A stretch of 64,000 nt of DNA, taken from Acidaminobacter sp. (GTDB lineage: Bacteria; Bacillota; Clostridia; Peptostreptococcales; Acidaminobacteraceae). The stretch spans positions 2,463-66,462 of the forward strand of contig NZ_JAOTSB010000018.1 of assembly GCF_030247605.1 (NCBI RefSeq). Direction: 5' to 3'. Positions 30,872 to 63,828 of this stretch are shown here, piece after piece (within the stretch, counting starts at the first letter, position 1; each line of letters opens with the position of its first letter). Position numbers and translations under genes: made by a program. The notes under the pieces were generated by a model. It searched no databases, was not told the DNA's origin, and saw only the letters and a program-made list of their open reading frames with translations.

Positions 30872-30898
30872 TTTTATGGATGGGGAAACTTCAAGTGA

Positions 30899-34360: not shown

Positions 34361-34430
34361 AAAAAATCCCCCTCATAAAAAGTTCAAAAACTTTTTTTTA
34401 GCCGATGGTCACCCAAAAGCCCCCATCCCA

Positions 34431-35648: not shown

Positions 35649-35847
35649 CTAAACAAATCACCTCATTTTGAGATTGAACCATTTGGTGTTAACTGGACAC
35701 TTTTAATCATACCCATAAAACGTCGAATGAAGACTTGAAACTGCAAAAAAATGATGCCGATGGTGGCGGGAATGGGGGTGACAAGCGCTGGCTGGAGACA
35801 CACCTTTCCACGCAGCCCCTATCTCCACCCCTTTTTCTTCTTCCATT

Positions 35848-44870: not shown

Positions 44871-46082
44871 CTAGAGAGCCTCCTTTGTAATGGCTTCGAC
44901 GGTGACGTCCAGGACGCCGTCTCTGAGTTTGGCCTTCAGTTTCTGGCCGGGTTTAGCTTTGGAAACCTCATCCACAGCATGTCCGGACGCATCCGTCAAG
45001 ACTGCGTAGCCCCTTCCCAGGACACCCAGCGGCGACAGCGCGTTCAGCGCTGCCCCAAGCTCTGACAGAGCGGTTTTTTCGCGCCTGAGGCGGTTCTGAA
45101 GGCTCTGATCCAGGTGATCCCGTTCGTAGTCCAGGGTCATGCGTTTCTGATTCAGGCCGTCCTGCAGCCGCTTCAACTCGGACTGGGGCGAGTGACGCTC
45201 AATTTCATGCCGCAGTGTCATGAGCCTTGCGGCAATTTTGGCGTGCATGCGGTTTAAGCTGCCTGCGAGTTCGCTGACCAGCATTTTGTCGCTGGGGAAT
45301 AAAAGCTCAGCCCCTGCCGATGGTGTCGGCACCCGCTGATCGCTCACAAAATCCGATATGGTAAAGTCCGTCTCATGCCCTACGGCCGAGACAACTGGAA
45401 TTTCAGAATCATGGATGGCTTCCGCCACGACGCGCTCATTGAAGGCCCAGAGCTCTTCAATGGAACCGCCGCCTCGGCCGATCAGAAGAACATCGGCCAA
45501 CTTCTTTTCGTTGGCATAGCGGATAGCTTTGGCAATGGACGCAGCAGCGCCTTCACCTTGAACCGCTGCCGGCAGAAGGATGACCTCTGGGAGGCGGGAA
45601 CGCCTGAAGCCCACGTTGAGAATGTCCTGGATGGCGGCGCCGGTAGGTGATGTGACCACGGCAATGCGCTCCGGAAGCTCGGGAATGGGCTTTTTGTGTT
45701 TTGGGTCAAAATAGCCAAGGGCTGCCAGTTCTGTCTTCAAGGCTTCGAAGCGCTGATAGAGGTCGCCTACGCCCAGGCGCTCGACGCTTCTGACATAGAG
45801 CTGGTAGCGGCCGTCGCGTTCGTATATGGAAATGTTGCCGGTGCAGGATGCCATCATGCCGTCTGAGAGGTCAATCTGGCTGAGAATCGTATCTGAGCGG
45901 AACATTACGCAGCTGAGGCGGGCCTCGCCGTCCTTCAGCGTAAAGTAAAGGTGTCCGCTGGAATGTTTTTTGAAGTTGGAGATTTCCCCTTCCACCGTCA
46001 GGTGGTGCAGGATGGGATCACGGTTCATGAGCTGCTTGATGTAATTGTTGACTTCAGCGACCTTAAGGGGTCTGAGCTTCAT
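44871..46082 (-). CDS. xseA: Exodeoxyribonuclease VII large subunit
   Basis: OB-fold N-terminus (GEISNFKKHSSGHLYFTLKD) and catalytic GRGGGS. Confidence 0.95.
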   Translation of the reverse strand: MKLRPLKVAEVNNYIKQLMNRDPILHHLTVEGEISNFKKHSSGHLYFTLKDGEARLSCVMFRSDTILSQIDLSDGMMASCTGNISIYERDGRYQLYVRSVERLGVGDLYQRFEALKTELAALGYFDPKHKKPIPELPERIAVVTSPTGAAIQDILNVGFRRSRLPEVILLPAAVQGEGAAASIAKAIRYANEKKLADVLLIGRGGGSIEELWAFNERVVAEAIHDSEIPVVSAVGHETDFTISDFVSDQRVPTPSAGAELLFPSDKMLVSELAGSLNRMHAKIAARLMTLRHEIERHSPQSELKRLQDGLNQKRMTLDYERDHLDQSLQNRLRREKTALSELGAALNALSPLGVLGRGYAVLTDASGHAVDEVSKAKPGQKLKAKLRDGVLDVTVEAITKEAL

Positions 46083-50799: not shown

Positions 50800-50906
50800 G
50801 TGACGCGGACAGAATTTGATTTAGTGCCAGTCACTGAGTTGAGGTTGGTGTCTGACACTCAGTCAAGTTTGGTGTCTGACACTCAGTCAAGCTTGGTGTC
50901 AGGCAC
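50800..50906. repeat. 24-bp phased array (5 units), degenerate terminal unit
   Basis: Cores at 50800 (GTGACGCGGAC), 50824 (GTGCCAGTCAC), 50848 and 50872 (GTGTCTGACAC) and 50896 (GTGTCAGGCAC). Confidence 0.85.
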
Positions 50907-50961
50907 TCACTACAATTCAGACACAATTCGTGAGGCATTCCCGGTCCACCGAATCAAAAAA

Positions 50962-50999
50962 CTGCTGCAAATGGTCATTTTACAGACCATCGGCAGCAG
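50962..50999. repeat. CTGCCGATGGTC-family hairpin (degenerate left arm)
   Basis: CTGCTGCAAATGGTC - loop - GACCATCGGCAGCAG. Confidence 0.7.
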
Positions 51000-51034
51000 T
51001 AGTTTCGCTTTCCTATAAATTACTTCACCTTCAT

Positions 51035-51136
51035 ATTAAATAACATCTCGCTGACTGAGCAGCAAAAAGAGATTCAACAAGAGAAAGAGCAGATTCGCGA
51101 TCAACATAGCAAAAAGAAGAAATTTTCTTTTTTTCA
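51035..51136 (-). CDS. Possible 33-aa hydrophobic peptide
   Basis: Manual translation MKKRKFLLFAMLIANLLFLLLNLFLLLSQRDVI, directly downstream of the DUF5658 gene. No homology support. Confidence 0.25.
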
Positions 51137-51151
51137 TGGGTTTGTTCATCT

Positions 51152-51454
51152 CTAGAACAAAATCATTCGGTGATACAGCACCACCGTCGAATACGCTGCA
51201 AACGGCACCCAGGCCAGCGTCACCAAAGACCGTCCGATCTTATGCCGCAGCTGCCACAGGAGCACGAGAAGAAGCGGCACAAGAAACAGCTTCACAAGCG
51301 GAAACTCGAATGTGCCCACCATAGGCGCCAAAAACGGATTGGCTTCCTTAAACCCCCGCTCCAAAGCTTCAAGAGTCATCAGGTAGTCCACTTTATTAAA
51401 CGCCGCAATTCCAATCAACTGCAGCCACAGCAAACGTTCCATTGATTTCGGCAT
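51152..51454 (-). CDS. DUF5658-like small membrane protein
   Basis: 100 aa; FNKVDYLMTLEALERGFKEANPFL followed by TM helices. Confidence 0.7.
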   Translation of the reverse strand: MPKSMERLLWLQLIGIAAFNKVDYLMTLEALERGFKEANPFLAPMVGTFEFPLVKLFLVPLLLVLLWQLRHKIGRSLVTLAWVPFAAYSTVVLYHRMILF

Positions 51455-51630
51455 AACCTCATCCCCAAACTAGAAAATGATCAGCCGGTTACGCCACTGG
51501 ATCCCTGCAGCCAAAGCGTCCAAATGCAGCTGCAGCTCAACTCCTCTGATGGCCTATTAATACCCAGAATGGCTGCGCGGAAAACAATCAATTGAGAATA
51601 ATTATCGATTGAAAAAGATTTTAAAACATA

Positions 51631-51660
51631 TGCCGATGGTCACCCCACCCACCATCAGCG
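51631..51660. repeat. CTGCCGATGGTC-family hairpin
   Basis: TGCCGATGGT - CACCCCACCC - ACCATCAGCG (one mismatch). Confidence 0.7.
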
Positions 51661-51670
51661 GTTATGTAAA

Positions 51671-51720
51671 TGTGAAACTTGGTGTCATGTGAAACTTGGT
51701 GTCAGACACCCAGTTTCACA
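51671..51720. repeat. 17-bp tandem duplication ending in a 16-bp-stem hairpin centred on GTGTCAGACAC
   Basis: TGTGAAACTTGGTGTCA x2, then GACACCCAGTTTCACA, about 150 nt upstream of the MFS gene. Confidence 0.8.
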
Positions 51721-51871
51721 TCCATCCCCGCCCATCCAACAACACTCTCGAACTTTGACCCCTAGATATGCTATACTGACCCTAAGCCAAAATCGGCCTG
51801 AGCCCGGCCCATTAAACCCATGACCGGCAATCAATCCCCAACCCCACAACGACATTTTTCAGGAGCGCAAG

Positions 51872-53044
51872 ATGACACGAGAACCCCTTTGGACACGAAA
51901 CTTCATCACTATTTCCATAGTCTTTTTCCTAGTCGCCCTGGTCTTCTACCTTCTCATGGTAACCATGGCCTCCTACGCCGCCACGGCCTTCAACGTCACT
52001 GAAAGCATGGCGGGCCTCGTCACGGGCATTTTCATCATAGGCGCCCTGACCGGCAGGATCTTCACCAGCAAACTCATGTCCCAAATTGGCAGCAGACGCA
52101 CCCTGCTGATAGGGCTTGGCCTGTTTACAACAGGTTCAGGGCTTTATTTTTTCGCGGTCAACATTCCGCTGCTGCTGACCATTCGCTTTTTCCACGGCAT
52201 GTCGACGGGGATCACCCTCAATGCCTCCGCGACCCTGGTCGCCCTCATGATCCCCTTCGCCAGGCGGGCCGAGGGGATTGGCTACTTCAGCACAGCCTCC
52301 GTCCTTTCTACAGCCCTCGGGCCGTTTCTCGGCATCTTTCTGCTGGAAAAAGCCGGCCTCCATTTCATATTTGGCTTTTGCCTGGCAATCAGCCTCATCA
52401 GCTTCGTCTTGTCCCTGAGGATCAGCGCACCGGCAGCGGATGCCGCTTCCAGCCCCACCCAAAAAGGCTTCAGACTCTCCGACACCTTTGAAATCACAGC
52501 GCTCCCCATCTCTTTGATCACAATGTTGTTAGGCTTCTCCTACTCCAGCATCTTGTCCTTCATCACCCTCTACGCCAAAGCCGTAGACCTCGTCTGGGCC
52601 GCCAGCTTTTATTTCGTCGTTTATGCCATCACCATCATCCTAACCCGGCCCTTCACCGGCCGCCTGATGGACCAGAGGGGCGCCAATCTCGTCGCTTACC
52701 CCACCCTCCTGACCTACGTCGCTGGTATGGTCCTGCTGAGCCAGTCCCGTCACGGGATTGTACTCCTCCTCGCCGCCGCCATTATAGGTTTGGGATACGG
52801 CAACTTCAACTCCGTCGCCCAAACCCTCTCCATCAGCAGGGTCCCAAGCGCGCGCATCTCTGTTGCCACGACCACGTATTTCATTTTCCTGGAGCTGGGC
52901 CTCGGCCTTGGCCCGTACCTCCTCGGCACCCTGATCTCGCTGACCGGCTACCGCGTTATGTATCTGAGCATGTCAGGCGTCATCGTGGTCGCGGCGGTGC
53001 TTTATCATCTGTTTTATGGAAGACATGAGCACAGGCAAGAATGA
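51872..53044 (+). CDS. MFS transporter
   Basis: 390 aa with a twelve-TM profile and the GRIFTSKLMSQIGSRR loop motif. Confidence 0.88.
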   Translation: MTREPLWTRNFITISIVFFLVALVFYLLMVTMASYAATAFNVTESMAGLVTGIFIIGALTGRIFTSKLMSQIGSRRTLLIGLGLFTTGSGLYFFAVNIPLLLTIRFFHGMSTGITLNASATLVALMIPFARRAEGIGYFSTASVLSTALGPFLGIFLLEKAGLHFIFGFCLAISLISFVLSLRISAPAADAASSPTQKGFRLSDTFEITALPISLITMLLGFSYSSILSFITLYAKAVDLVWAASFYFVVYAITIILTRPFTGRLMDQRGANLVAYPTLLTYVAGMVLLSQSRHGIVLLLAAAIIGLGYGNFNSVAQTLSISRVPSARISVATTTYFIFLELGLGLGPYLLGTLISLTGYRVMYLSMSGVIVVAAVLYHLFYGRHEHRQE

Positions 53045-53092
53045 GTCGATTCAGCAGCTCTTACAATGGAAATTTCCCAAAAACCCAAAACG

Positions 53093-53133
53093 TCTGCCGA
53101 TGGTCACTTAACCCACCATCGGCAGATGTTTTT
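53093..53133 (+). terminator. Intrinsic terminator after the MFS gene, built from a CTGCCGATGGTC inverted pair
   Basis: TCTGCCGATGGT - loop - ACCATCGGCAGA followed by TGTTTTT. Confidence 0.8.
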
Positions 53134-53240
53134 AATTTTGGATTAAAAGAAGGAAGACGGTGTCAGCTGCTAGCATCTATCAACCCCTTCTTCCTTCCAT
53201 TTAGCACCAAAATGCTTGCTTCTTGAAACCAAAAACGTTG

Positions 53241-53711
53241 CTAATCCCCATTCTCAATCACAAAGTACAACGGGTCTCTCTGTTCAATCTCAAGACTCGT
53301 CTCAAACATCACTTTGCCGGTGTCGAGTTCTTCAACAGTTAAATGCACCTCAAAGGATTCCGCCTTAATTTCGTGATCAGGATCCACCGTCCAGTAAATT
53401 TTGTGCTCGTTCGTCATCACGTCGCGCCCCAGAACCTCTATACGGCCCATCCCACTGGCGCTGCCGTGCCACTTGAGGAAAGCACCCTCCTCCGCGATCC
53501 AGTGGTAGACATAATTTTTATTCTTGAGTTCCCGGGTAAACACCGCAACCAGAGGGATTCCAGGCGTTGTGGACATGTATGGAGAGTATTCAAAGAGTTC
53601 CGGTTTGATGGTCAGGCTGGAGTCATCCGCTGAGCAGCCTGGGAGAGAAAGGATCATGGCCAATAACGCCAGAATCGTCAACGCAGCTTTTAGGACATTC
53701 CTTGATTTCAT
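53241..53711 (-). CDS. Lipoprotein of unknown function
   Basis: MKSRNVLKAALTILALLAMILSLPGC lipobox; ATG at 53711 preferred. Confidence 0.75.
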   Translation of the reverse strand: MKSRNVLKAALTILALLAMILSLPGCSADDSSLTIKPELFEYSPYMSTTPGIPLVAVFTRELKNKNYVYHWIAEEGAFLKWHGSASGMGRIEVLGRDVMTNEHKIYWTVDPDHEIKAESFEVHLTVEELDTGKVMFETSLEIEQRDPLYFVIENGD

Positions 53712-53845
53712 GTTATGGCCACCTCTCATACGAAAACGTTGTCTGGTGCTGCCCACTATTATTCTAATTCATTATCTATATACCACTTGTCCGACATGAC
53801 AATCTTTCAAGTTCTCTTGAGGACTTCAAATACCTCCACAAGAAA

Positions 53846-53887
53846 AATTTCTGCCGATGGTCACATAATCAACCATCGGCAGAAATT
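53846..53887 (-). terminator. Intrinsic terminator after gdhA, built from a CTGCCGATGGTC inverted pair
   Basis: 16-bp stem AATTTCTGCCGATGGT/ACCATCGGCAGAAATT with a U-run on the minus strand. Confidence 0.8.
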
Positions 53888-53962
53888 CAATTATAGTGGA
53901 AGGCGGGGTTGACAGGCGCTAGCCGCAGACACCAATTTCCAGCTTCATATTCCTTACCATTA

Positions 53963-55300
53963 TCAATAATCCCCCTGCAGCATCATGGCCTCCGCAACCC
54001 TAATAAAGCTCGCGATATTCGCGCCAGCCACGAGATCATGGCCAAAGCCGTACTTCCTGGAAGCGGCCAGACAATCCTTGTAAATGTTGTTCATGATCAC
54101 CTTTAGGATCGCGTCGACTTCCTCGAAGGTCATGCTCTGGCGCATGGAGTTCTGGGTCATTTCCACCGCGGAAATCGCCACGCCGCCCGCATTGCTGGCC
54201 TTCGCAGGCGTCAGCAGGATGCCCTCGTCCATCAGGAATTTCATGGCGTCATAAGTCGTTGGCATATTGGCGCCCTCACAGACGGCCAAGACCCCATTGG
54301 TTACCAGCTTCTCCGCGCTCTTAAGATCAATATCATTCTGCGTCGCGCACGGAAACGCGATATCACACTTGAGATTCCATATGTTTCTGAGCCCTTCGAC
54401 GAACTCTGCCTTTGGATGATCTTTCAGGTACTCCTTGATCCGTCCGTGCCGGACTTCCTTCAGTTCTATCATGGCTGGGACGTCTATACCGTCCGGGTCA
54501 TAGACGTAGCCGCTGGAATCGCTCATAGCCAGCACCTTGATGCCAAACTCTGTCGCTTTCACCGCCGTATACAAAGCCACGTTGCCCGAGCCGGAAATGA
54601 CCGCTGTCTTACCCGTCAGCTCAATGTTGTTCTCCTCAAACATGGCCTTCGTGAAATAGAGCAGCCCGAATCCCGTCGCTTCCTTGCGGCCGTGGGAGCC
54701 GCCATAAATAATATGTTTGCCGGTCAGGACGCCGCTCTCATGCGCCCCGGTCAGACGCCGGTACTGGCCGAACAGGAACCCGATTTCCCTGGAGCCCACA
54801 CCTATGTCTCCCGCAGGCACGTCAATATCAGGTCCTATGTGTCTGTAAAGCTCGCTCATAAAGCTCTGGCAAAAGCGCATGATCTCCGCGTCGCTCTTAC
54901 CTTTCGGGTCAAAATCCGCGCCACCCTTGGCACCGCCAATTGGCCGTCCGGTCAGGGAATTCTTGAAGGTTTGCTCAAAGCCCAGAAACTTCAGGATACT
55001 GAGATTCACGGTAGGATGGAATCTGAAACCGCCCTTGTACGGTCCTCTGGCCCCGTTGAACTGAATTCGGAAGCCTCTGTTGACAATGAGTTCCCCTTTG
55101 TCGTTGACCCACGGAACCCTGAAAATGATCGTCCTCTCCGGCTCTGCTATTCGCTCAAGGATATTGGCCTTTTCAAACTCCGGGTGCTGCTTGATGACCG
55201 GCGCCAAAGAGGTAAACACCTCTTCTACCGCCTGGATAAACTCCGGTTCATTTGCGTTTCTTGCTTTGATGTTTTCAATGGCTTTTTCCAAGTACGTCAT
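53963..55300 (-). CDS. gdhA: Glutamate dehydrogenase
   Basis: RIQFNGARGPYKGGFRFHP and GGAKGG motifs. The ATG at 55300 follows GGGAGGG. Confidence 0.95.
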   Translation of the reverse strand: MTYLEKAIENIKARNANEPEFIQAVEEVFTSLAPVIKQHPEFEKANILERIAEPERTIIFRVPWVNDKGELIVNRGFRIQFNGARGPYKGGFRFHPTVNLSILKFLGFEQTFKNSLTGRPIGGAKGGADFDPKGKSDAEIMRFCQSFMSELYRHIGPDIDVPAGDIGVGSREIGFLFGQYRRLTGAHESGVLTGKHIIYGGSHGRKEATGFGLLYFTKAMFEENNIELTGKTAVISGSGNVALYTAVKATEFGIKVLAMSDSSGYVYDPDGIDVPAMIELKEVRHGRIKEYLKDHPKAEFVEGLRNIWNLKCDIAFPCATQNDIDLKSAEKLVTNGVLAVCEGANMPTTYDAMKFLMDEGILLTPAKASNAGGVAISAVEMTQNSMRQSMTFEEVDAILKVIMNNIYKDCLAASRKYGFGHDLVAGANIASFIRVAEAMMLQGDY

Positions 55301-55528
55301 GGTGATCCCTCCCAAACGGATATTCATACATTTAAAAACCAATTGATAACGCTGATAAAATTAACCGAATGATCATGAACGTGTTCGAATTAGTTAATTT
55401 ATTGCTTAACAAGATTTATTCGAAGCGTTATCCTAAAACAACTTATTGAGGATTTTTACCCATCGCATAAATAATTATTCATATTTTTCTTAACCAAGCG
55501 GTGCCAGAAATTTCGAATTCCCCCCCCC

Positions 55529-55569
55529 AAAAAAAATGCCTGCCGATGGTCATTTTCACCCATCGGCAG
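55529..55569 (-). terminator. Intrinsic terminator after the MerR gene and 115-bp element, built from a CTGCCGATGG inverted pair
   Basis: CTGCCGATGG/CCATCGGCAG stem. On the minus strand it is followed by T8 and then G9. Confidence 0.75.
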
Positions 55570-55591
55570 CCTTTAGTATTTATTTGGATTT

Positions 55592-55720
55592 AACTTCATT
55601 TTCCCGTACCTGGTAGTAAAAGTGAAGATAATGAAGTTGCTTTTCGTGAAATCTAGTAATATCAGTCTTTACAAAATACTTGTACGTCGGTGTTCCGAAA
55701 AACGTGCCAGGTACGGGACC
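55592..55720. repeat. 115-bp TIR-bounded element, copy 1 (MITE-like or structured 3'-UTR RNA)
   Basis: CCCGTACCTGG at 55603-55613 and CCAGGTACGGG at 55707-55717. About 94% identical to copy 2 and about 88% to copy 3 by manual alignment. Confidence 0.85.
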
Positions 55721-55724
55721 CCGC

Positions 55725-56531
55725 TTAATCAGCTACCCTCATTTGAACTTCTGTCAAAAATTCCTCTTGCTGAACGGTATAACGATTGTCAATATGGTAC
55801 AGCTCAAATGGGTCACCCAGCACGTCCATATCACGCGTATTCGCGTAATTCAGTATCTTCCGGATTTGATCCGAACTTTGCGCATACGTTCCGCGGTAAT
55901 AGACGCTGAGATACCGTCCTGCTGGAAGCATAAAATCGAAGTGGTCAGTTTCATTCTCCAAAATAATAAATACAGAATTAAACACCCCGTTGCCGCCCTT
56001 ATAAAAGTTTTCCATGGAGGGAACAGCTCCAATGGACAAGTTGCCCAGCTCACAAAGTATGGCGTCATGCTTCATGTGGAGTTTGTTGATGGCAAAATCA
56101 GTTTCCTCATCTCGGGTAATCTCAGCGTTGAGGCGCAGGCAGAACCTGTCTGAGTAAGTTCTGACGACGCATTCTCCAACCTGAACAGAAGACAAATAGT
56201 TCAACATTTCCATGCGGGAGTGAAGGGCTGCTTTGGCAGCACGAAGGGTCTCCAATTGTGTTTCAATAAGGGCCTGTTCTTCCTGAATCAACACCAAAGA
56301 ATTTGTGATGCATTGATCATCCAAATAGGCCTTGATCTGCTTAAAAGAAAAATCGAGACTTCTAAGATCCCGAATGATATTCAGCTTATAAATTTCTTTT
56401 AGGCTGTAAAGGCGATAGCCGTTATCGTCCCGTTTAGGGGTCAATATCCCGAGTTTCTCATAATATCGCAGCGAATCAATGCCAATCTTGTAGAGCTTTG
56501 ATATCTGATTGATCTTGTAATAGTCTTTCAT
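55725..56531 (-). CDS. MerR family transcriptional regulator with GyrI-like effector-binding domain
   Basis: YKINQISKLYKIGIDSLRYYEKLGIL HTH and a C-terminal GyrI-like domain; ATG at 56531. Confidence 0.88.
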   Translation of the reverse strand: MKDYYKINQISKLYKIGIDSLRYYEKLGILTPKRDDNGYRLYSLKEIYKLNIIRDLRSLDFSFKQIKAYLDDQCITNSLVLIQEEQALIETQLETLRAAKAALHSRMEMLNYLSSVQVGECVVRTYSDRFCLRLNAEITRDEETDFAINKLHMKHDAILCELGNLSIGAVPSMENFYKGGNGVFNSVFIILENETDHFDFMLPAGRYLSVYYRGTYAQSSDQIRKILNYANTRDMDVLGDPFELYHIDNRYTVQQEEFLTEVQMRVAD

Positions 56532-56648
56532 TAAAAGGATCACCTCATTATTAAAACTTAAGAACATCACTTGACCCTAGTATTATACCAGGGTTTACAC
56601 TTAGGATGTGATACAAATTGTTCCAGTCAAAAAGAGAGGTTAACCATC

Positions 56649-57332
56649 ATGACAACGATTCATAACACATCTTTATCAGTTAATAATTCCTATGCCAACT
56701 TACTTACCCCTAAGAAACTATTGGTCATTATAATTGGGACGGCGTTGCTGTCCTTTGGTTTGTATAACGTCCATCGGCAGGCTTCACTCTCTGAAGGTGG
56801 TGTGCTGGGGTTGATATTGCTGCTTGACCACTGGTTTGGATTAACGCCTGGCCTCGTGTCTCCCGCGCTCGATGCTTTGTGCTACGCGATGGCGTTTAAG
56901 GCTCTTGGCAAAGACTTTCTCAAAATATCCGCGGTTTCGGCGGTTAGCCTAGGGGGATTTTTTATGCTGTGGACGCAGTTTCCACCCCTGCTGCCGAACC
57001 TCACTGAGATGCCGCTGCTGGCGTCCATAATTGGAGGCCTCTTTGTAGGGGTCGGCGCGGGCTTGGTGATTCGCCAGGGTGGCACCACAGGTGGGGATGA
57101 CGCCTTGGCGCTGACACTCTCAAAACTCACAGGCTGCCGCTTATCCCTCGCTTACCTGGCGACAGATTTGACAGTGCTGCTGCTTTCACTGACCTATATT
57201 CCGTTCGGACGTATTGGTTTTTCAATAGTGACGGTTGTGATCTCATCTTTGCTGATTGATTATGTTAAAAATTTTACTGCTGGTAAATCAAACAAAACAA
57301 GCTCTGTGGAAATTTCTGTGAATGAAGCATGA
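56649..57332 (+). CDS. YitT-family (DUF161) integral membrane protein
   Basis: Multi-TM with QGGTTGGDDALALTL. The ATG at 56649 follows GAGAGG. Divergent from the MerR gene. Confidence 0.75.
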   Translation: MTTIHNTSLSVNNSYANLLTPKKLLVIIIGTALLSFGLYNVHRQASLSEGGVLGLILLLDHWFGLTPGLVSPALDALCYAMAFKALGKDFLKISAVSAVSLGGFFMLWTQFPPLLPNLTEMPLLASIIGGLFVGVGAGLVIRQGGTTGGDDALALTLSKLTGCRLSLAYLATDLTVLLLSLTYIPFGRIGFSIVTVVISSLLIDYVKNFTAGKSNKTSSVEISVNEA

Positions 57333-57403
57333 CTTCATTAAAATGTATGATGTAGAATGGATGGATTGTTGAATAGATCGGATAAAACCTAAATCAAAAA
57401 CTG

Positions 57404-57455
57404 AAAGCTGCCGATGGTCGCTTGTGTATATGACGACCATCGGCAGCTTTTTCAT
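57404..57455. terminator. Bidirectional terminator hairpin built from a CTGCCGATGGTC inverted pair
   Basis: 17-bp stem AAAGCTGCCGATGGTCG/CGACCATCGGCAGCTTT with T-runs on both strands, between convergent genes. Confidence 0.8.
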
Positions 57456-57576
57456 TTTCCCGTACCTGGTAGTAAAAGTGAAGATAATGAAGTTGTTTTT
57501 CGTGAAAACAAGCAATATCAGTCTTTGCAAAATATTTGTACGTTGGTGTTCCGAAAAACGTGCCAGGTACGGGACC
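57448..57576. repeat. 115-bp TIR-bounded element, copy 2
   Basis: CCCGTACCTGG at 57459-57469 and CCAGGTACGGG at 57563-57573; same 115-bp span as copy 1. Confidence 0.85.
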
Positions 57577-57581
57577 CGTTC

Positions 57582-58316
57582 TTAATAGCATTTATAAGCA
57601 TTCTTAGGCAGCGTCATCCAACCGCGCGCTTCATCTTGATGCACAAGAATCGTCCGTTCCCAGTTCAAATAGACCATCTTGACCATGTCTTCACACAGCC
57701 CGACCTGATCCGAATCATCGACATGGGAACCATCCAGGCCGCAGACGCGCTCTGCGCCTGTAACTTTTTTCAACTCAGCCGCTTTGAGGCTATCTCCGGC
57801 AGCGCCGGCATAAATCTTGCCTTTGATCCTGCCGTCGTGGCCATTCAGTCGAAGCCCCACGCCAGCAATAGCGCCTATCACCCCGCCACCTGTCCCGCCA
57901 TGCTCGGACAAATGAACCTTCGTGGATTCTGCCAGCTCATAAGCCATGGCTTTCGTCACCAAACCCGCTTTTGCCTGCCGACCAAAGGCAATCAGCCGCT
58001 CCAGACCCTGAATCTGATCCCGAACCGCAACACACAGGCCTGGGTCTGACCCTTCTTCGCTGACCTCCAGCAGATGCTCCTGGGCCAGCGCGATCACCTG
58101 CGCCAGAGCGCCGCATACCAGTTCTGCTTCAAAACACATGGCGCTGTTATGGGAGGTGTAAGGCACCTCCTCATGGACATAGAGCTGGTGCCTGGTAATA
58201 TAGCGGGTCGTTCCCAGTCCGAGGGCTTCAATCTTCTGCCGCAGCGCCTCCGCGTGGTGGCCTGTGCCTGGGGTGCCCAGACTGTCGGTGTCATCTATAG
58301 CTATCAATACTCTCAT
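57582..58316 (-). CDS. Hypothetical protein resembling the N-terminal ATP-utilising domain of archaeal TiaS
   Basis: MRVLIAIDDTDSLGTPGTG start, PYTSHNSAMCF, SDPGL and a GGTGGGVIGAIAGVG segment resemble, from memory, the TiaS N-terminal domain. No OB fold or zinc ribbon. 24-nt gap and a GAGGTGA RBS after the SBP gene. Confidence 0.6.
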   Translation of the reverse strand: MRVLIAIDDTDSLGTPGTGHHAEALRQKIEALGLGTTRYITRHQLYVHEEVPYTSHNSAMCFEAELVCGALAQVIALAQEHLLEVSEEGSDPGLCVAVRDQIQGLERLIAFGRQAKAGLVTKAMAYELAESTKVHLSEHGGTGGGVIGAIAGVGLRLNGHDGRIKGKIYAGAAGDSLKAAELKKVTGAERVCGLDGSHVDDSDQVGLCEDMVKMVYLNWERTILVHQDEARGWMTLPKNAYKCY

Positions 58317-58340
58317 CTCATCACCTCTGCCTCATAGGGC

Positions 58341-59453
58341 TCATGAAGATTTTGCCGCGCGCATGCCGACGCCGGACAGGATTTCTTCGATTTCTTCAGA
58401 GTCAAATTCAAGTCCAAAGTAGGTCCCGTAGTAATCCTTTGTATACTGAACCAGATCCAGATCCTCAAATTTTTCAGGATAAAAGAGCTGAGCCATGTAC
58501 AGGACAGCCATAGGTGTCTCTATGGAGCCGGGATGGCCCCATCTGGAAATGCCTACAGGAAGCGTAAACACCTGCCCGGACTGGACTGCCTCAAGGCCCT
58601 GCCACTTGGCATCCGTCCGGATATAGTCTGCCACCAGATACTCATTGGCCAGGATCGCCTCCGGTTTCCAGCCGTAGATTTCTTCCAGGGTCACAAAGGT
58701 TTTTTCATCAGCCATGGCAGCGCCAGCCTCCGCGGAGACATTGATCAGACCCGCCAGGGTGGTCACTTCTTCCTGAATGCTGCCCATGGCATCCGTTCTG
58801 GTCGCTTCATTGACAGAGTGATAGACGCGGACGCGTTCTTCCATAGGAATGTCGCTGATGCGCGCCTGGACCATGGCAATGGCAGCTTCATAAAAATCCA
58901 GATAAGCCTGTGCAGCCTCCTGACGGTTCAGGACCTCGCCCAGTACTTGAATGGAACGCTTTTGTTCCTCAATGTTGGTGTAATCAATGACAACATAGGG
59001 GATGCCGGCCTTGTCCAACTTTTCCGTTTCTGCCCCGCTGAGGGCTATGGAATGGCGGATCAGCGCGATCTCAGCGCCTGAAGCGATCAGTTCCTCAACA
59101 TTGATGACGCCGGTCGCCGAAGGGACACTCAGCCTATCAATGTCAGCGCGTTTCATCCGCATCAGCTGATCGCGTTTGAGTCCCTCCACCAGGGCGACGA
59201 TCTGATCCTGGGTGTCAAGGAGAGTCATGCCATGGCCGGCGTAGGCGTAAAGACATGCGATCTTCAGCTCGCCTTCTGGTATTTCAACTGTTCTGCCATC
59301 ACAGTCAACAATGCTTCGGGTGGCGGCCGCCTCTTCCAGAGCTGGCGGAGTGGCTTCAACCGGCTTTGTTTGTGGCGCGCAGGCGGTGAGTAAGAGGACC
59401 ATCGGCAGAAAAAGCACTGCTGAGAGTAAAGTGGCACGCCAATGACGTTTCAA
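58341..59453 (-). CDS. ABC transporter substrate-binding lipoprotein, Fe3+-siderophore/cobalamin (FecB/BtuF) type
   Basis: Lipobox LLLTAC and a class III periplasmic-binding-protein-like sequence. Confidence 0.85.
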   Translation of the reverse strand: MKRHWRATLLSAVLFLPMVLLLTACAPQTKPVEATPPALEEAAATRSIVDCDGRTVEIPEGELKIACLYAYAGHGMTLLDTQDQIVALVEGLKRDQLMRMKRADIDRLSVPSATGVINVEELIASGAEIALIRHSIALSGAETEKLDKAGIPYVVIDYTNIEEQKRSIQVLGEVLNRQEAAQAYLDFYEAAIAMVQARISDIPMEERVRVYHSVNEATRTDAMGSIQEEVTTLAGLINVSAEAGAAMADEKTFVTLEEIYGWKPEAILANEYLVADYIRTDAKWQGLEAVQSGQVFTLPVGISRWGHPGSIETPMAVLYMAQLFYPEKFEDLDLVQYTKDYYGTYFGLEFDSEEIEEILSGVGMRAAKSS

Positions 59454-60268
59454 TTTGCGTCCCTCCTCTTGTCTGGAACCGCCATGATGTAGCTGAAAGG
59501 AAGCCCGTCCATGACCCCAGTATGGGTAACGACTCTGGTATGATACAGGCGTTCAATCGTGTCGCTGGTCAAGACCTTCGACGGCTTGCCCTGCGCAATC
59601 AGCTGGCCCTGCTCCATAATGCCCACTCTGACCGGCATGCCGCTGTTTTCAAAGTAAAGCGGATGATTCAGGTCATGGGTTGTCAGCATGAAGGAAAGGC
59701 CCTCGGTCCGGGTGAGGGCGCAGATCAGGTTCAAAATTTCATTTTCGTTCTTAAAATCCAGATGCGAAGTGGGCTCGTCCATGATGATCAGCTTTGCCTT
59801 CTGGGCCAGCGCCCGGGCGATCATGACGAGCTGCAGCTCGCCGCCGCTGATCTGGGTGTAGGGCTTTTGGGAGATCGCCTCCAGGCCCGTCATAGCAATG
59901 GCCTCCCGGGCGATTTCCCGGTCGCGCCTGTCAGGACTCGAAAAGGTGCCTGTCGCAAAAGTCCGCCCCATTAACACAATTTCAAAAACAGAATAAGGAA
60001 ACGTCTTGGCGTGCAGCTGAGGCACAAAGGCGATCTGCGACGCGACTTCAGCGGGCTTAAGGGTATGAATAGACCGGCTGCCGAGGCTGATGTCACCGGA
60101 CTTCAGCGGATGCTGGCCCAGGACACAGTCAATCAGCGTTGTCTTGCCGCAGCCATTGGGGCCGAGGAGGCAATAAATCTCCCCCGGGGCGACTTTCAGG
60201 CTGATCCCGCGAAGCGTATGCTCTGTCCCATAAGAAAAATTAAGGTTGTCAATACTCAATAATGTCAT
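59450..60268 (-). CDS. ABC transporter ATP-binding protein (FepC/BtuD type)
   Basis: Walker A GPNGCGKTT, signature SGGELQ, Walker B IIMDEP. ATGA overlap with the permease stop. Confidence 0.92.
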   Translation of the reverse strand: MTLLSIDNLNFSYGTEHTLRGISLKVAPGEIYCLLGPNGCGKTTLIDCVLGQHPLKSGDISLGSRSIHTLKPAEVASQIAFVPQLHAKTFPYSVFEIVLMGRTFATGTFSSPDRRDREIAREAIAMTGLEAISQKPYTQISGGELQLVMIARALAQKAKLIIMDEPTSHLDFKNENEILNLICALTRTEGLSFMLTTHDLNHPLYFENSGMPVRVGIMEQGQLIAQGKPSKVLTSDTIERLYHTRVVTHTGVMDGLPFSYIMAVPDKRRDAN

Positions 60269-61287
60269 GCCCAATTCTCCCCTTTGGTCCGTTTCAAAAG
60301 ATAGATGAAAAATGGCCCGCCAACCAGCGCCGTGACTATACCGAGCGGAATCTCCGCGCCGGTCAGGGTCCTGCAGAGAGTATCCACCAGGAGCATGAAG
60401 CTTGCGCCCAGGGAAATAGAGGCAGGAATCAGCTTTCTGTTGTCGTTGCCGACCAGCATCCGCCCTACATGGGGGATGACAAGGCCAATCCAGCCCACCA
60501 CACCGCTGACGCTGACCGCTCCGGCCGTCGCTAAAGTCGCGAAGCCAATCAGAAAGAACTTGACGACTTTGACGTTGATGCCAAGACTCCTGGCCTCCCT
60601 GTCGCCCATGGAAATGATGTTGAGCCGGAAGCTGAGCAGCAGCAGTCCAACCAGTCCTAGTCCCATTGGGATGCTGCTCATCAGAATGTCCTGACTCCTG
60701 GCAGCGCTGAGGCTCCCCATGAGCCAGAAGGTGATCGCCGGCAGCTTATTCAGCGGATCCGCGACGTATTTCACCAGCTGCAGCAGCGCGGAAAAAATGG
60801 AGGAGATCACCGTACCGCCCAGAACCAGCATAATGGTTGAGGTCGAGGACGATTTGTAGACTCTGCCCACCAGATAACTGGCCCCAACGGCCACGATGCC
60901 AAAGACAAAGGCGAACACCGGCGTCCACAGGGTCCCAAACAGCAAAATCGAAATAGCTGCCCCAAAGCCCGCCCCCGAAGACACGCCAAGGATTCCGGGG
61001 CTGGCGAGGGGATTTCGAAACAGCGCCTGATAGGCCGCACCAGACACGGCTAACGCGCTCCCGGTTGCCATGGCCAGAAATGTCCTTGGCAAGCGGATTT
61101 CCATGACAATGGTATACAGATCCTTCACGACCAGGGCGGACTGGCCTGTCGCCGCACGAAATAGAATCTCAAAAACTGTGCCGGCCGGGATTTCAAACCT
61201 GCCGGTGCTCATGGAAATCACGGCCATAAGGATTGGCAGGACCACGAAGATCAATAGTCTCAAGATCAATTTCAGAGTCAGCTTCAT
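60265..61287 (-). CDS. FecCD/BtuC family ABC transporter permease
   Basis: 340 aa multi-TM with IRLPR, GILGVSSGAG and GEIPLGIVTALVGGPFF. Confidence 0.92.
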   Translation of the reverse strand: MKLTLKLILRLLIFVVLPILMAVISMSTGRFEIPAGTVFEILFRAATGQSALVVKDLYTIVMEIRLPRTFLAMATGSALAVSGAAYQALFRNPLASPGILGVSSGAGFGAAISILLFGTLWTPVFAFVFGIVAVGASYLVGRVYKSSSTSTIMLVLGGTVISSIFSALLQLVKYVADPLNKLPAITFWLMGSLSAARSQDILMSSIPMGLGLVGLLLLSFRLNIISMGDREARSLGINVKVVKFFLIGFATLATAGAVSVSGVVGWIGLVIPHVGRMLVGNDNRKLIPASISLGASFMLLVDTLCRTLTGAEIPLGIVTALVGGPFFIYLLKRTKGENWA

Positions 61288-61290
61288 ACT

Positions 61291-61980
61291 TTATGAACGC
61301 TTTTTCTTCATCCAGTACCCGGCGATCAGCATCACAGCTGCAATGCCGGCCATGACATAGATCATGGAGGATGGCGCGCTGTCGGTGCCAGCTTCCTCTG
61401 CGGCTGGCGCTTCGGCTATTGGTGCTTCGGCTGTTGGCGCTTCAGCAGCAGGTGCTTCAGTCGTTGCCGGCGCTTCAGTCGTAATTGGAGTCTCCCCGCC
61501 GGCGGCGGCTGTCGTGAAGCTGATGACAATGTCCTCTGCCAGGCTGGCCCCGCTCTTTGAAGTCAGAGCTTTGCTGATCGTCACTATGTATTCCGTTCCG
61601 GCTTCCAGTTCTGCCGATGGTTTCACCACCACATCATTCTTCTTATCAGGCTCAACCTGCGAATCTGCCATCAGCACTTCATAGGCGACTTCACCGCCGT
61701 CTTTCTTCTCCAGCTTGAAGCACGCCAGGTTGGCTTCTTTGACACTGAGGTCCGTCACGTTCTTGCTGAACACCATGGTGACAGACGGGGTCAGACCTAC
61801 TTCGGTTTGTCCATCCGTGACCGTTGAGGAAACTAGCGTGAGCGGCTCTGAGCTGTTGCCGCCGGTGCCTCCCCCGGTTCCACCGCCAGTTCCACCGCCA
61901 GAACCGTCTGCGGAGGAAATGATCAAGGGCATAAACAGGAGGGCTAATGCAATGCTTACAAGGACTGAAACTTTTTTCAT
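61291..61980 (-). CDS. Surface protein: signal peptide, Gly-rich spacer, SbsA/Big_5-like Ig domain, TEAPA repeats, C-terminal TM anchor
   Basis: MKKVSVLVSIALALLFMPLII signal, GGGTGGGTGGGTGG spacer, an Ig-like segment, (T/A)EAP repeats, then MAGIAAVMLIAGYWMKKKRS. ATG at 61980. Confidence 0.75.
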   Translation of the reverse strand: MKKVSVLVSIALALLFMPLIISSADGSGGGTGGGTGGGTGGNSSEPLTLVSSTVTDGQTEVGLTPSVTMVFSKNVTDLSVKEANLACFKLEKKDGGEVAYEVLMADSQVEPDKKNDVVVKPSAELEAGTEYIVTISKALTSKSGASLAEDIVISFTTAAAGGETPITTEAPATTEAPAAEAPTAEAPIAEAPAAEEAGTDSAPSSMIYVMAGIAAVMLIAGYWMKKKRS

Positions 61981-62045
61981 GATGTCGACCCCTTTACAAT
62001 TTGATGTGTCGCAGCAGCTAAAGGAAAGGCGCGCTGGTTTTTGGA

Positions 62046-62075
62046 CAAAAAAAGACACTCGGAAAGTCGAGTGTA
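62046..62075 (-). terminator. Intrinsic terminator within the 5' leader of the ABC importer operon (attenuator)
   Basis: ACACTCG-ACTTTC-CGAGTGT followed by T7 on the minus strand, about 65 nt upstream of the first gene. Confidence 0.7.
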
Positions 62076-62265
62076 CCGGTTATTGCCTATGAGTCATCAC
62101 AAAAACAGCGGTGATCCCATAGACACGTCAGACTCTTTCTTTCCAAAACGGGAGGCTGTGGGATTTCTCCCCTAACCCAGGTTGGTGACCATAGCAAAAA
62201 GTAAGCCGTAGGTCATTCAACTCGAAATGAGCGCGATATTCAGTTGGCAGTTTTGACATGTCTAG

Positions 62266-62294
62266 AGTATAACATACTCTTGATAGGGGTTAAA
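62266..62294 (-). promoter_or_regulatory. Putative promoter of the ABC importer operon
   Basis: The minus strand has an extended -10 TGTTATACT and a weak -35 TTTAAC at 17-nt spacing. Confidence 0.35.
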
Positions 62295-62363
62295 GGGACT
62301 TCGCGGCTGCGAGGGAGAATTTGGAGGAATGGGCTTTCGAGACTTGAAGCCCAGAAGATTTTA

Positions 62364-62401
62364 GCCGATGGTCAGATGGCGTACATCACATGACCATCGG
62401 C
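62364..62401. repeat. CTGCCGATGGTC-family hairpin between divergent transcription units
   Basis: GCCGATGGTCA - 16-nt loop - TGACCATCGGC. Confidence 0.75.
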
Positions 62402-62579
62402 AGCTAATATCTTCATGCCTTTCTTGTAGTGTACACAAAAACTAATAACGAACGCAGGTCCAAACTCTACCCCTTCCCTTCCCAAATGTTGTATAATTAG
62501 ACAAAGCTTTTATATGGCTGACGGGGATCTGGCCATTTATTACCCGTTAAAGTCAAACCAACAAGCGAGGGGATCAAAC

Positions 62580-63602
62580 ATGAGCAAAGTCTACTTCATA
62601 AAAAATGAAAGCCTCAATGACGATCAGCTGGGATCAGATGCATTGAAGCTGCTTAAGACAGTGGTCGCGGCGTCCGGGCATACCTTTGAAAAGGAGGTCC
62701 CGCTCAAAGTGCATTTTGGAGAAAAAGGTAATACGACCTTTCTGTCAGCCAAATGCTACGACCCAACCATTCAATATCTGAAAGAGATGGGGGTCTCCCC
62801 TTCCTACATAGAAACCAACGTTCTCTACAGAGGATCGCGAACCACCACGGATAAGCACCTGGAAACCGCGAAAGCCCACGGCTTCTCCCAGATTCCAATT
62901 ATCATTGCGGACGGTGACCTCGGTACAGAGTATGTTGAGGTAGAGATCCCTGGAGAGTATATAAAAAAGTGTAAAATTGGAAAAGGTTACGGCAGGTTTA
63001 ACCAATTTATTGTCATGAGCCATTTCAAAGGCCATATTCAAGCTGGGTTTGGCGGGGCTTTGAAGCAGCTGGCCATGGGCTTTGCGGCCAGAGGCGGCAA
63101 GCTGGAGCAGCATGCCGGCATCGCGCCGGTTGTGTCTGCAAAAAAATGTGTGTCCTGTGGACTCTGTATCGAAAAATGTGACTTTGATGCCATTGAAATG
63201 ATTAATACTGCGGTGATTGATCCGGACAAATGCGTGGGCTGCGCGGGCTGTATTGCTGTCTGCCCGGAAGGCGCCATCCGCAACTCCTGGTCGGGCTCCA
63301 ACTTCCTGGAGAAGCTATCAGAATACGCCCTGGGTGCAGCCAAAGACAAGGACATCATCTACATCTCCTTCATCAGCAATGTCACCGAGGAATGCGACTG
63401 CACCGGCATCCACATGAAGCCCATTGCGGATAATATTGGCGTTCTAGCCTCGAAAGATCCTGTAGCGCTGGATACCGCCTGCCTGGACCTGCTTCAGCAG
63501 CGCAGCCGCAAGAAGCTCTTTGAGAATGGTCGAGTGTCTTTGAAGCACGCTGAAAAGATTGGGCTGGGGACTATGGCGTATGAATTGGTTGCGCTGGATT
63601 AG
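62580..63602 (+). CDS. DUF362 domain protein with 2x[4Fe-4S] ferredoxin insert
   Basis: MSKVYFIK...LKVHFGEKGN start, CVSCGLCIEKC and CVGCAGCIAVCP clusters. The ATG at 62580 follows GAGGGG. Confidence 0.85.
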   Translation: MSKVYFIKNESLNDDQLGSDALKLLKTVVAASGHTFEKEVPLKVHFGEKGNTTFLSAKCYDPTIQYLKEMGVSPSYIETNVLYRGSRTTTDKHLETAKAHGFSQIPIIIADGDLGTEYVEVEIPGEYIKKCKIGKGYGRFNQFIVMSHFKGHIQAGFGGALKQLAMGFAARGGKLEQHAGIAPVVSAKKCVSCGLCIEKCDFDAIEMINTAVIDPDKCVGCAGCIAVCPEGAIRNSWSGSNFLEKLSEYALGAAKDKDIIYISFISNVTEECDCTGIHMKPIADNIGVLASKDPVALDTACLDLLQQRSRKKLFENGRVSLKHAEKIGLGTMAYELVALD

Positions 63603-63626
63603 GAAAGATCAAAAATGATAAAGCTG

Positions 63627-63655
63627 GCCGATGGTTGTTATAATTCACCATCGGC
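63627..63655 (+). terminator. CTGCCGATGGTC-family hairpin after the DUF362 gene
   Basis: GCCGATGGT - loop - ACCATCGGC; weak T-run. Confidence 0.55.
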
Positions 63656-63657
63656 AT

Positions 63658-63781
63658 AACTTCATTTTCCCGTACCTGGTAACGCCAGTGAAGTTAATGA
63701 AGTTACTTTTCGTGAAAGCAAGCAATATCAGTCTTGACAAAATAATTGCACGTTGGTGTTCCGAAAAACGTGCCAGGTACA
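63658..63781. repeat. 115-bp TIR-bounded element, copy 3 (right inverted repeat truncated)
   Basis: CCCGTACCTGG at 63669-63679; the right end CCAGGTAC at 63773-63780 stops short of GGG. Confidence 0.8.
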
Positions 63782-63784
63782 GAA

Positions 63785-63828
63785 AAAAGGCTGCCGATGG
63801 TCATTTGAAGCGCCATCTGCAGCCTTTT
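63785..63828 (-). terminator. Intrinsic terminator after the ParE/RelE gene, built from a CTGCCGATGG inverted pair
   Basis: AAAAGGCTGCCGATGG / CCATCTGCAGCCTTTT (one mismatch), with a U-run on the minus strand. Confidence 0.7.

Follow-up and report, generated by a model that had tools for sequence, protein, structure and literature searches.

In this study, we provide evidence that a short DNA word, cTGCCGATGGTc, is hyper-abundant in the chromosomes of Acidaminobacter (Clostridia, Peptostreptococcales, Acidaminobacteraceae). The analysis covered a stretch of 64 kb from an Acidaminobacter sp. contig (NZ_JAOTSB010000018.1; hereafter the window) together with related Acidaminobacter-type DNA amounting to about 385 kb, part of it redundant. 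The word, 10-12 bases long, occurs roughly 60- to 1000-fold more often than chance predicts, within genes as well as paired in terminator hairpins; it is spread over the whole window, constrained at the DNA level, built by point substitution and shared across the genus. The feature is a genus-specific, oriented DNA word with the core TGCCGATGGT; its outer positions (c...c) are weaker, its 5' side is AT-rich and its 3' flank is rich in C and poor in G. Molecular drive biased by DNA uptake, with later co-option of paired copies as terminators, would be the most likely mechanism, one in which our confidence is evenly balanced, and we only infer uptake bias as the driving process.

The exact 12-mer CTGCCGATGGTC is present in 13 copies in the window, on both strands, against 0.01 expected from dinucleotide-preserving shuffles and 0.011-0.018 from Markov models of order 1-4. 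Its 9-mer core, GCCGATGGT, reaches 34 copies, about one per 1.9 kb, where 0.51 would be expected. A preliminary description of this DNA had counted about 28 cores against about 0.5 expected and had located the feature at 50962-63828. The over-representation claimed there stands, also against the Markov expectation, but the count was too low and the interval too narrow, as cores extend from 2.9 kb to 63.8 kb. Their density is 3.6 per 10 kb over the first 50 kb and rises to about 11 per 10 kb over the last 14 kb. Alignment of all copies extended the word to t-C-T-GCCGATGGT-C, A/T-rich on the 5' side. The 12-mers with one mismatch vary only at positions 1, 2, 11 and 12 and never at positions 3-10, thus the core is very sharply defined.

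Twenty-one cores lie between genes, at a density of 21.5 per 10 kb, and 13 within them, at 2.4 per 10 kb, an approximately 9-fold intergenic enrichment. The genic cores are themselves 28-fold in excess (13 against 0.47 expected, p = 5e-15), with seven in sense and six in antisense orientation. The copies had been described as mostly inverted pairs; about half are indeed paired, but the 13 genic copies and five intergenic ones stand singly, as follows.

2927-2938, - strand: single intergenic copy right after an ordinary, motif-free terminator downstream of hfq
5347-5358, + strand: genic copy in mutL, antisense, peptide PSA
9926-9937, + strand: genic copy in miaB, antisense
14095-14106, - strand: exact genic copy in ispH, sense, peptide SADGH
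15721-15732, - strand: genic copy in cmk, sense
21133-21144, - strand: single copy TTGCCGATGGTC between surE and rluB, which may fall inside a borderline GNAT-like open reading frame (ORF)
23071-23082, - strand: genic copy in a PolyA_pol-ScpA fusion gene, sense
25286-25297, - strand: single intergenic copy GTGCCGATGGTC
26994-27005, + strand: exact genic copy in a xanthine/uracil permease gene, sense
27626-27637, - strand: exact genic copy in a histidine kinase gene, antisense, peptide GTIGS
29676-29687, + strand: genic copy in a histidine kinase gene, sense; GCCGATTGT, one substitution off, in the relative with 93% RecN identity
33220-33231, - strand: genic copy in the pyrimidine-nucleoside phosphorylase gene (pdp), peptide GPMV
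34399-34410, + strand: single intergenic copy with the C-rich 3' flank CACCCAAAAGCCCCC, kept in the 93%-RecN relative
35754-35765, + strand: single intergenic copy, its core kept in the 93%-RecN relative
38555-38566, + strand: genic copy in recN, antisense, completed by the change YHKL to YHRQ
45314-45325, + strand: genic copy in xseA, antisense, peptide TPSAG, conserved in four Acidaminobacter genomes
59397-59408, - strand: exact genic copy in a periplasmic-binding-protein gene, sense, peptide LPMV
61611-61622, + strand: genic copy in a Big_5-domain gene, antisense

The genic copies are spread over five of the six frames, and the peptides that they encode (SADGH, LPMV, YHRQ, GTIGS and xPSAx) are unrelated, thus selection at the protein level cannot account for the word. 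Four of the 13 lie in genome-maintenance genes (mutL, recN, xseA and scpA), a class that makes up about 21% of the coding DNA, in what is a small sample. Gene orientation and GC skew place the window within a single replichore, and there the cores show no significant strand preference (19 on the + strand, 15 on the - strand, p = 0.6); a skewed signal of the Chi or KOPS type was rejected on this count. A sigma-D promoter, with a -10 element resembling GCCGATAT, was rejected as well, since the spacing to TAAA does not fit and copies lie within genes on both strands.

The word is genus-wide, densest in the lineage of the window and absent from loci of the neighbouring clade. At syntenic recN loci, picked irrespective of the motif, six copies were found in the window, five in the relative with 93% RecN identity, one in A. 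hydrogenoformans (79%), two at 76%, one at 71%, and none in either of two outgroups at 44%. A scan of a genome collection with the pattern TGCCGATGGT-N4-34-ACCATCGGCA returned, among the matches listed, mostly chance singletons in unrelated phyla; the repeated matches among those listed came from A. hydrogenoformans DSM 2784 and an uncultured Acidaminobacter metagenome-assembled genome (MAG), as well as from a Planctomycetota and a Cytophagales MAG described below. In the loci of the two Acidaminobacter genomes the word alone is held in common, with differing loops and flanks, and six 8-kb loci of A. hydrogenoformans held 13 extra copies besides the pairs by which they had been selected. With a stricter 22-base pattern, for which about one chance match is expected, 46 metagenome stretches were found, with 7-12 cores per 10-13 kb in those that are Acidaminobacter-like (GC 0.45-0.57). 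Across Acidaminobacter-like loci outside the window region, 25 copies are genic and 30 intergenic. The word is present in at least five Acidaminobacter lineages. It recurs on numerous contigs from A. hydrogenoformans, a further Acidaminobacter MAG and Acidaminobacter-like metagenome DNA, thus the copies are not by-products of one local duplication, an outcome against which the preliminary description had set its own proposal. Seven viral contigs contain a pair, about the chance level, and two of similar GC (L003 and L005) are not assignable to this host.

The same letters were also met in unrelated organisms, in a different setting. A Planctomycetota MAG (CAVOUO01; loci L012, L020, L021, L028, L059, L063, L064, L071, L100, L118 and L123) has repeats of its own that contain GCCGATGGT, in the form of a dispersed palindrome of about 36 bp whose loop and flanks are conserved, and in a Cytophagales MAG (JAAFKA01; loci L061, L065, L081, L083 and L085) GCCGATGGT lies inside tandem arrays with periods of about 62 and 145 bp. 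These repeats conserve loops and flanks, thus the Acidaminobacter pattern is unlike a mobile or tandem element. A near-identical 38-nt palindrome, CTGCCGATGGTGAGCGACGCCGTGATCACCATCGGCAG, with its variants, was seen in metagenome loci of GC about 0.70 (L138, L140, L148, L153, L162, L169, L173 and L175), from several metagenomes, and no further copy of the word lies close to it. The palindrome is most likely a single orthologous site that an unrelated organism has conserved. A search for a distinct dialect in small samples of deeper relatives yielded none, only the 8-mer CGGCAATG in L126 (ENA ERZ15185953 NODE_1, a 21.6-kb locus), with 12 copies against about 0.7 expected, a strand distribution of 3:9, no longer consensus and no pairing. 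This excess is probably an effect of codon usage, or may represent a skewed, Chi-like word of that lineage.

How the copies evolve can be followed in three genomes, those of the window, L130 (the 93%-RecN relative) and L131, whose DNA differs by 10-15%. Hairpins stand at orthologous positions in all three, with arms fixed and loops and flanks drifting: the pairwise difference per site is 0.058 for arms, as compared with 0.265 for loops and 0.283 for flanks (p = 2e-8 and 3e-18). In the hairpin at 57404 all 24 arm bases are identical across the three genomes, against 5-6 differences in the 15-nt loop. The hairpin at 53093 has undergone a compensatory double change, from CTGCC...GGCAG to CAGCC...GGCTG in L131, which shows that pairing is also under selection. 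In a 28.2-kb pairwise alignment of the window with its relative (88.8% identity), 11 of the 13 alignable window copies are intact, where 34% would be expected (p = 3e-4), and 89 of 90 intergenic motif positions (98.9%) are identical as against 79.3% of other intergenic DNA (p = 2e-8, two genomes). Each genome has two private copies; three of these four lie 1-2 substitutions from the word in the other genome, and the fourth is the copy in dxs.

Codon alignments of recN, dxs, pdp and xseA contain no indels at the genic copies. The peptide GPMV of the pdp copy is invariant in all relatives, and the word there was built by synonymous changes alone. In recN, an ancestral YHKL became YHRQ in a variable region and completed the word, and in dxs LPVD became LPMV in two non-sister lineages, yielding CTGCCGATGGT[G/C], through either parallel gain or transfer between lineages. 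The xseA copy is kept in four genomes, synonymous sites included. As judged from these alignments, the genic copies are products of directional substitution towards a DNA word, wherever the protein tolerates it. A directional bias of mutation or repair, either HIP1-like or through very-short-patch repair converting near-matches, would produce such copies even if the word itself had no function, and substitutions towards the word that include synonymous sites and arose in parallel in two lineages are what it would predict. However, known biases of this kind act on words of 4-8 bp, mostly palindromic, and give a modest excess, while the present word is no palindrome, measures 10-12 bp and exceeds expectation about 60- to 1000-fold; the preferred orientation of pairs and the C-rich flank, both described below, would also be left unexplained, thus we consider a bias of this kind improbable.

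The paired copies form the second conspicuous arrangement. All nine hairpins of the preliminary description, with their shared stem and unrelated loops, fold as it stated, with stems of 10-19 bp and free energies (dG) of -12 to -35 kcal/mol, and a tenth pair was added at 19962-20053.

19962-20053: long pair, arms about 70 nt apart, dG -37 kcal/mol, just downstream of the 3' end of surE; the inner C-rich tract pairs with a G-rich one
50962-50999: inverted pair, left arm CTGCAAATGGTC with two mismatches, right arm exact; terminator position after the DUF5658 gene, T-run on the - strand; orthologous in L130 and L131, where the arms differ by point changes
51630-51660: aTGCCGATGGTC, C-rich tract CACCCCACCCACC and a partial reverse arm, between divergent promoters and upstream of the c-di-GMP-II riboswitch; not a terminator position; in L130 and L131 a single copy with the C-tract, the partial reverse arm being found only in the window genome
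53087-53132: inverted pair with an 18-bp stem flanked by an A-run and a T-run; bidirectional terminator between the convergent MFS and 171-aa genes; conserved in L130 and L131
53845-53888: inverted pair with a 19-bp stem; terminator after gdhA (- strand); present in L131, missing from L130 along with the adjacent 171-aa gene
55540-55569: inverted pair, left arm exact, right arm with two mismatches; terminator after the MerR-family gene, T-run on the - strand
57403-57451: perfect 12/12 inverted pair with an 18-bp stem; bidirectional terminator between the convergent yitT and 244-aa genes
62362-62403: inverted pair between the divergent promoters of the Moco-riboswitch operon (-) and the DUF362 gene (+); T-run on neither strand; not a terminator
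63627-63655: inverted pair of the 9-mer core after the DUF362/4Fe-4S gene, with a weak T-tail
63785-63828: exact 12-mer with a degenerate reverse arm, T-run on the - strand; probably terminates a - strand gene to its right

Most pairs stand at gene 3' ends with a correctly directed T-run, and several are bidirectional, flanked by an A-run and a T-run. A GC-rich hairpin with a T-run was found at 19962, 50962, 53087, 53845, 55540, 57403 and 63785, and the position and layout of the pairs strongly suggest that most of them are used as terminators. The earlier reading of the hairpins as terminators holds to this extent, but two of its nine (given there as 51631 and 62364, here as 51630 and 62362) lie between divergent promoters, upstream of riboswitches, without a T-run. 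The gene preceding the hairpin at 63627 had been taken for TiaS-like and is that of a DUF362/4Fe-4S protein. A standard terminator scan, which allows loops of 3-8 nt, overlooks most of the motif hairpins, thus a custom census with a strict perfect-stem rule was used; by this census the word is part of 6 of 22 terminator-like intergenic hairpins (about 27%), and terminators with unrelated stems coexist with it.

The riboswitches near the two promoter-proximal pairs, c-di-GMP-II (51474-51556, -) and Moco (62119-62241, -), are the only Rfam matches in the window, and no RNA family was found over the hairpins. The former lies upstream of the DUF5658 gene, and the latter, of the Moco/tungsten class, heads an operon of Big_5, FecCD, ABC and periplasmic-binding-protein genes; in both cases a copy or pair of the motif stands just upstream of the promoter. 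The 171-aa gene, without a Pfam match, and its hairpin (53241-53888) form a whole-gene indel relative to L130, and this is the only presence/absence difference of a hairpin that was seen.

A preferred terminator stem, selected as RNA because the hairpin is bound by a protein or is optimal for termination, would make the genic copies incidental. The position of most pairs at gene 3' ends, their correct T-runs, the bidirectional cases and the compensatory change at 53093 are all consistent with it. On the other hand, the 13 genic singles are themselves about 28-fold in excess and half of them antisense, single copies form no hairpin, two pairs without T-runs occupy divergent promoter regions, terminators of unrelated stem stand alongside, and loops of 6-18 nt exceed the optimum for termination. 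Selection on RNA alone is in our view decidedly improbable.

The pairs have a preferred order. In all the Acidaminobacter-type DNA covered, close pairs read "word, then reverse complement" in 26 cases and the opposite in three (p = 1.5e-5), and never lie in direct orientation. The three exceptions and the long pair of the window fold into hairpins of about 100 nt, where a C-rich tract that follows the word on its 3' side pairs with a G-rich one. Hairpins of this size (dG -40 to -52 kcal/mol) were seen at L132 5049-5148, L142 97-196, L159 6809-6908, L144 9155-9256 and L068 2918-3053; they consist of a G-rich tract, the reverse-complement word, an AT-rich spacer of about 30 nt (in L068 the arms are 77 nt apart), the word and a C-rich tract. 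The long pair at 19962 belongs to the same architecture class as the long hairpins of L068, L132, L144 and L159, and the long hairpins may constitute a distinct class of elements built on the same word.

It had also been suggested that the hairpins resemble repetitive extragenic palindromic (REP) elements, which are mobilised by a REP-associated tyrosine transposase (RAYT, of the IS200/IS605 Y1 type). We considered mobile hairpins of the REP type or miniature inverted-repeat transposable elements (MITEs), spread by a RAYT or by another transposase. REP stems are conserved with variable loops and often lie at gene ends, the G-rich and C-rich arms of the few hairpins of about 100 nt are suggestive of an element, and one A. 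hydrogenoformans locus contains a fragment of an ISL3 transposase. However, genic copies lie in five frames and hundreds of bp away from the ends of genes, the 12-nt arm is all that copies have in common, their loops and flanks being unrelated, and the single copies are not hairpins. Orthologous hairpins in the three genomes change by point substitution, without insertion polymorphism; target-site duplications are absent, the flanks being complementary rather than direct repeats, and no Y1 transposase or RAYT was found among the genes of the window. The REP likeness is thus not supported, and we regard mobility of this kind as very improbable. An Ssn-related motif (SRM), similar to NTS and cut by a GIY-YIG single-strand nuclease that modulates transformation, was also considered, as NTS repeats are hairpins found in large numbers near genes, and homologues of Ssn are spread over different phyla. 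SRM/NTS have been described as repeats of about 30 bp with the conserved palindrome ATTCCC-N8-GGGAAT and conserved, oriented flanks, which surround genes rather than lie within them. In Acidaminobacter the sharing stops at the 12-mer arm, with unrelated loops and flanks, and many copies are single and genic, while no GIY-YIG gene was found in the window; among the explanations weighed here this one seems to us the least probable.

The single copies reveal the unit that is conserved. They were defined as copies having no partner with two or fewer mismatches within about 50 nt downstream (n = 48). The first base after the core is C in 77% of them, and the third is C in 73% and never A; from +7 to +16 C accounts for 40-54% and G for about 10% (z = 9.9 against random positions). 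No enrichment of ACCATC-like partners was found around these 48 copies, and their folding energy is the same with the real as with a shuffled downstream sequence (-10.08 and -10.04 kcal/mol, p = 0.95). The idea that single copies are decayed or cryptic hairpins was therefore rejected, and the conserved entity is accordingly an asymmetric site of about 25-30 bp with a hard core of 10 bp. The hairpins are a secondary arrangement of two single sites.

An oriented site of this kind could be that of a DNA-binding protein unrelated to uptake, used genome-wide and kept by selection on each site, for example as a marker of "self" for a repair or defence nuclease, or as the target of a nucleoid or termination-associated factor. 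Its sharp core, strong conservation and pairs at non-terminator positions fit this proposal, as does the asymmetric C-rich flank, which suggests a polar footprint of about 25-30 bp. However, known sites of such density (Chi, KOPS) are strand-skewed, while the word is not. The sites of parS, matS, Noc and SlmA number only in the tens, which also counts against a binding site. Selection on about 1000 sites (an extrapolated number), some of which force amino-acid replacements, would be harder to sustain than a transmission bias, and no evident candidate protein is encoded in the window. We consider a binding site unrelated to uptake unlikely, though it is the chief alternative to the uptake proposal.

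With the REP, MITE, Ssn/NTS, Chi/KOPS and RNA-only terminator explanations failing, a sequence-specific process acting on duplex DNA remains, and such a process would keep the word at very high copy number across Acidaminobacter chromosomes. Uptake sequences are the only described class with the full set of properties, thus we propose uptake-biased drive. The likeness to DNA uptake sequences (DUS) suggested in the preliminary description is borne out at the sequence level by the hyper-abundance, the genic copies in many frames, the lack of skew and the terminator pairs, as well as by genus-wide conservation, absence from the outgroup and origin by point substitution. In the proposed mechanism, a surface DNA receptor of the competence machinery would favour the uptake of fragments bearing the word, homologous recombination would then spread word-carrying alleles, and point mutations creating the word would build up wherever the function of the protein or intergenic region tolerates them. 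Two head-to-head copies (word, loop of 6-18 nt, reverse complement) beside runs of A and T might subsequently be co-opted as a bidirectional intrinsic terminator, and the pair would from then on also be held by selection for pairing. We tentatively propose, with somewhat less than even confidence, that Acidaminobacter has a sequence-specific uptake system, the first in a monoderm (Gram-positive) bacterium and the third of independent origin, recognizing cTGCCGATGGTc and its C-rich flank through a receptor of a new type, either a minor pilin of the ComG pilus or a protein resembling ComEA.

Several observations weigh against this proposal. DNA uptake in the Gram-positive models Bacillus and Streptococcus is not sequence-specific, which makes the prior low, and the C-rich 3' flank has no described DUS counterpart. 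Neither competence genes nor prepilin signals nor ComEC-like ORFs were found in the window or in the 385 kb or so of related DNA, where all that was seen were housekeeping genes and which represents a few percent of a genome. The evidence as a whole comes from the 64 kb and a few hundred kb of related DNA, some of which was chosen for containing a pair, and density at the recN locus is uneven, with 1-2 copies in the relatives of 71-79% identity as compared with six and five. Finally, a literature search yielded no paper on competence in Acidaminobacter. A search for the word itself gave only chance primer matches, and no such motif was found reported outside Neisseriaceae and Pasteurellaceae, in agreement with the earlier statement that nothing alike has been described for Clostridia. 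Recent surveys, including a screen of terminator k-mers in thousands of genomes, have likewise placed uptake sequences only in these two proteobacterial families.

By Pfam, the window is ordinary core chromosome of a spore-forming Firmicute, with mutS, mutL, miaA, hfq, miaB, ispH, cmk, 2-oxoacid:ferredoxin oxidoreductase, surE and scpA/B, as well as xerD, spo0A, recN, argR, dxs, ispA, xseA/B, nusB, efp, gdhA and transporters; no transposase of any kind was found in it. Its RecN matches a protein labelled "Acidaminobacter sp." at NCBI with 100% identity, and the RecN of A. hydrogenoformans with 79%. In the window (22982-25099, -) and in L127 (17845-19803), a PolyA_pol domain (the head of CCA-adding or poly(A) polymerases) is fused to the N-terminus of ScpA, giving proteins of 705 and 652 aa, as compared with about 248 aa for plain ScpA in two outgroup loci. 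The window also harbours a second repeat family of short tandem arrays with a period of 24 bp (17 bp at 51670), located at 5129-5217 (inside mutL), 21431-21525, 27349-27394, 30894-30984, 50845-50909 and 51670-51704. The unit is a palindrome of about 11 bp (for example GTGTC[T/A]GACAC or GTGACGCGGACA) with a spacer of about 13 nt. These arrays are mostly intergenic or promoter-proximal, and the one in the MutL linker is in frame, with eight codons per unit. At the site orthologous to 50.8 kb, L130 and L131 have arrays of another unit (GGTGACGCGGACAGGATTTGATTT), pointing to fast turnover of the unit sequence.

Uptake sequences are the textbook case of a genome shaped by its own DNA-uptake machinery. 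If confirmed here, the word would extend a known phenomenon to a new phylum and a new type of cell envelope, as a third independent case in an anaerobic, spore-forming Gram-positive bacterium; the phenomenon would then not be bound to the diderm route through type IV pilus and outer membrane, there would be a new receptor to look for, and the debate on molecular drive versus selection would become testable in a lineage of different biology. The word might also serve as a tag for making DNA transformable in a genus without genetic tools, and as a marker by which core and foreign DNA could be distinguished in Acidaminobacter MAGs. Should uptake prove not to be the cause, the very strong constraint at the DNA level would point to a genome-wide DNA-binding activity.

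Several known systems share part of the pattern. Chi and KOPS/SRS are likewise over-represented and read by DNA-processing machines, but they are 5-8 bp long and strongly co-oriented with replication, while the present word has 10-12 bp and no skew. HIP1 (GCGATCGC) of cyanobacteria is an 8-bp palindrome, hyper-abundant in genes and spacers and maintained at the DNA level without terminator pairs; the likeness lies in the hyper-abundance of a DNA-level word, the difference in its being palindromic, only 8 bp long and unpaired at terminators. REP elements and bacterial interspersed mosaic elements (BIMEs) are also abundant gene-end hairpins with conserved stems and variable loops, but there the whole extragenic palindrome (20-40 nt) with its conserved 5' tetranucleotide is the unit, as against a single 12-mer that also occurs in genes and arises by point mutation. 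The Ssn/NTS/dRS3 repeats, which together with SsnA modulate transformation in Neisseria, are abundant and hairpin-forming as well; they differ in being conserved hairpins of about 30 bp that include their flanks and cluster around ssnA and certain other genes, and neither such clustering nor such flanks were seen here. The closest likeness is to the two families of uptake sequences. The DUS of Neisseriaceae (GCCGTCTGAA and 12-mer dialects) is a non-palindromic 10-12-mer found about once per 1-2 kb, genic and intergenic, without strand skew, shared within its clade and absent outside; its inverted pairs serve as terminator stems, and its genic copies occupy a subset of frames in variable protein regions, all features that the Acidaminobacter word shares. 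DUS differs in sequence and in phylum, diderm Betaproteobacteria as against monoderm Clostridia, thus an outer-membrane receptor of the ComP type cannot be assumed; moreover, 37-55% of Neisseria terminators have been reported to carry DUS, compared with about 27% for the word here, a C-rich 3' flank is present here, and uptake is here inferred from sequence. The uptake signal sequence (USS) of Pasteurellaceae (AAGTGCGGT with AT-rich flanks), for which ComN has been predicted as receptor, differs in taxon, in sequence and in its AT-rich flank, as against the C-rich, G-poor one of Acidaminobacter. It is alike in its strong core with weaker asymmetric flanks, in its many coding-region copies, in the share of terminators that carry it (17-29%, or up to 22% by another figure) and in a preferred configuration of its hairpin pairs, for which a bias has been reported.

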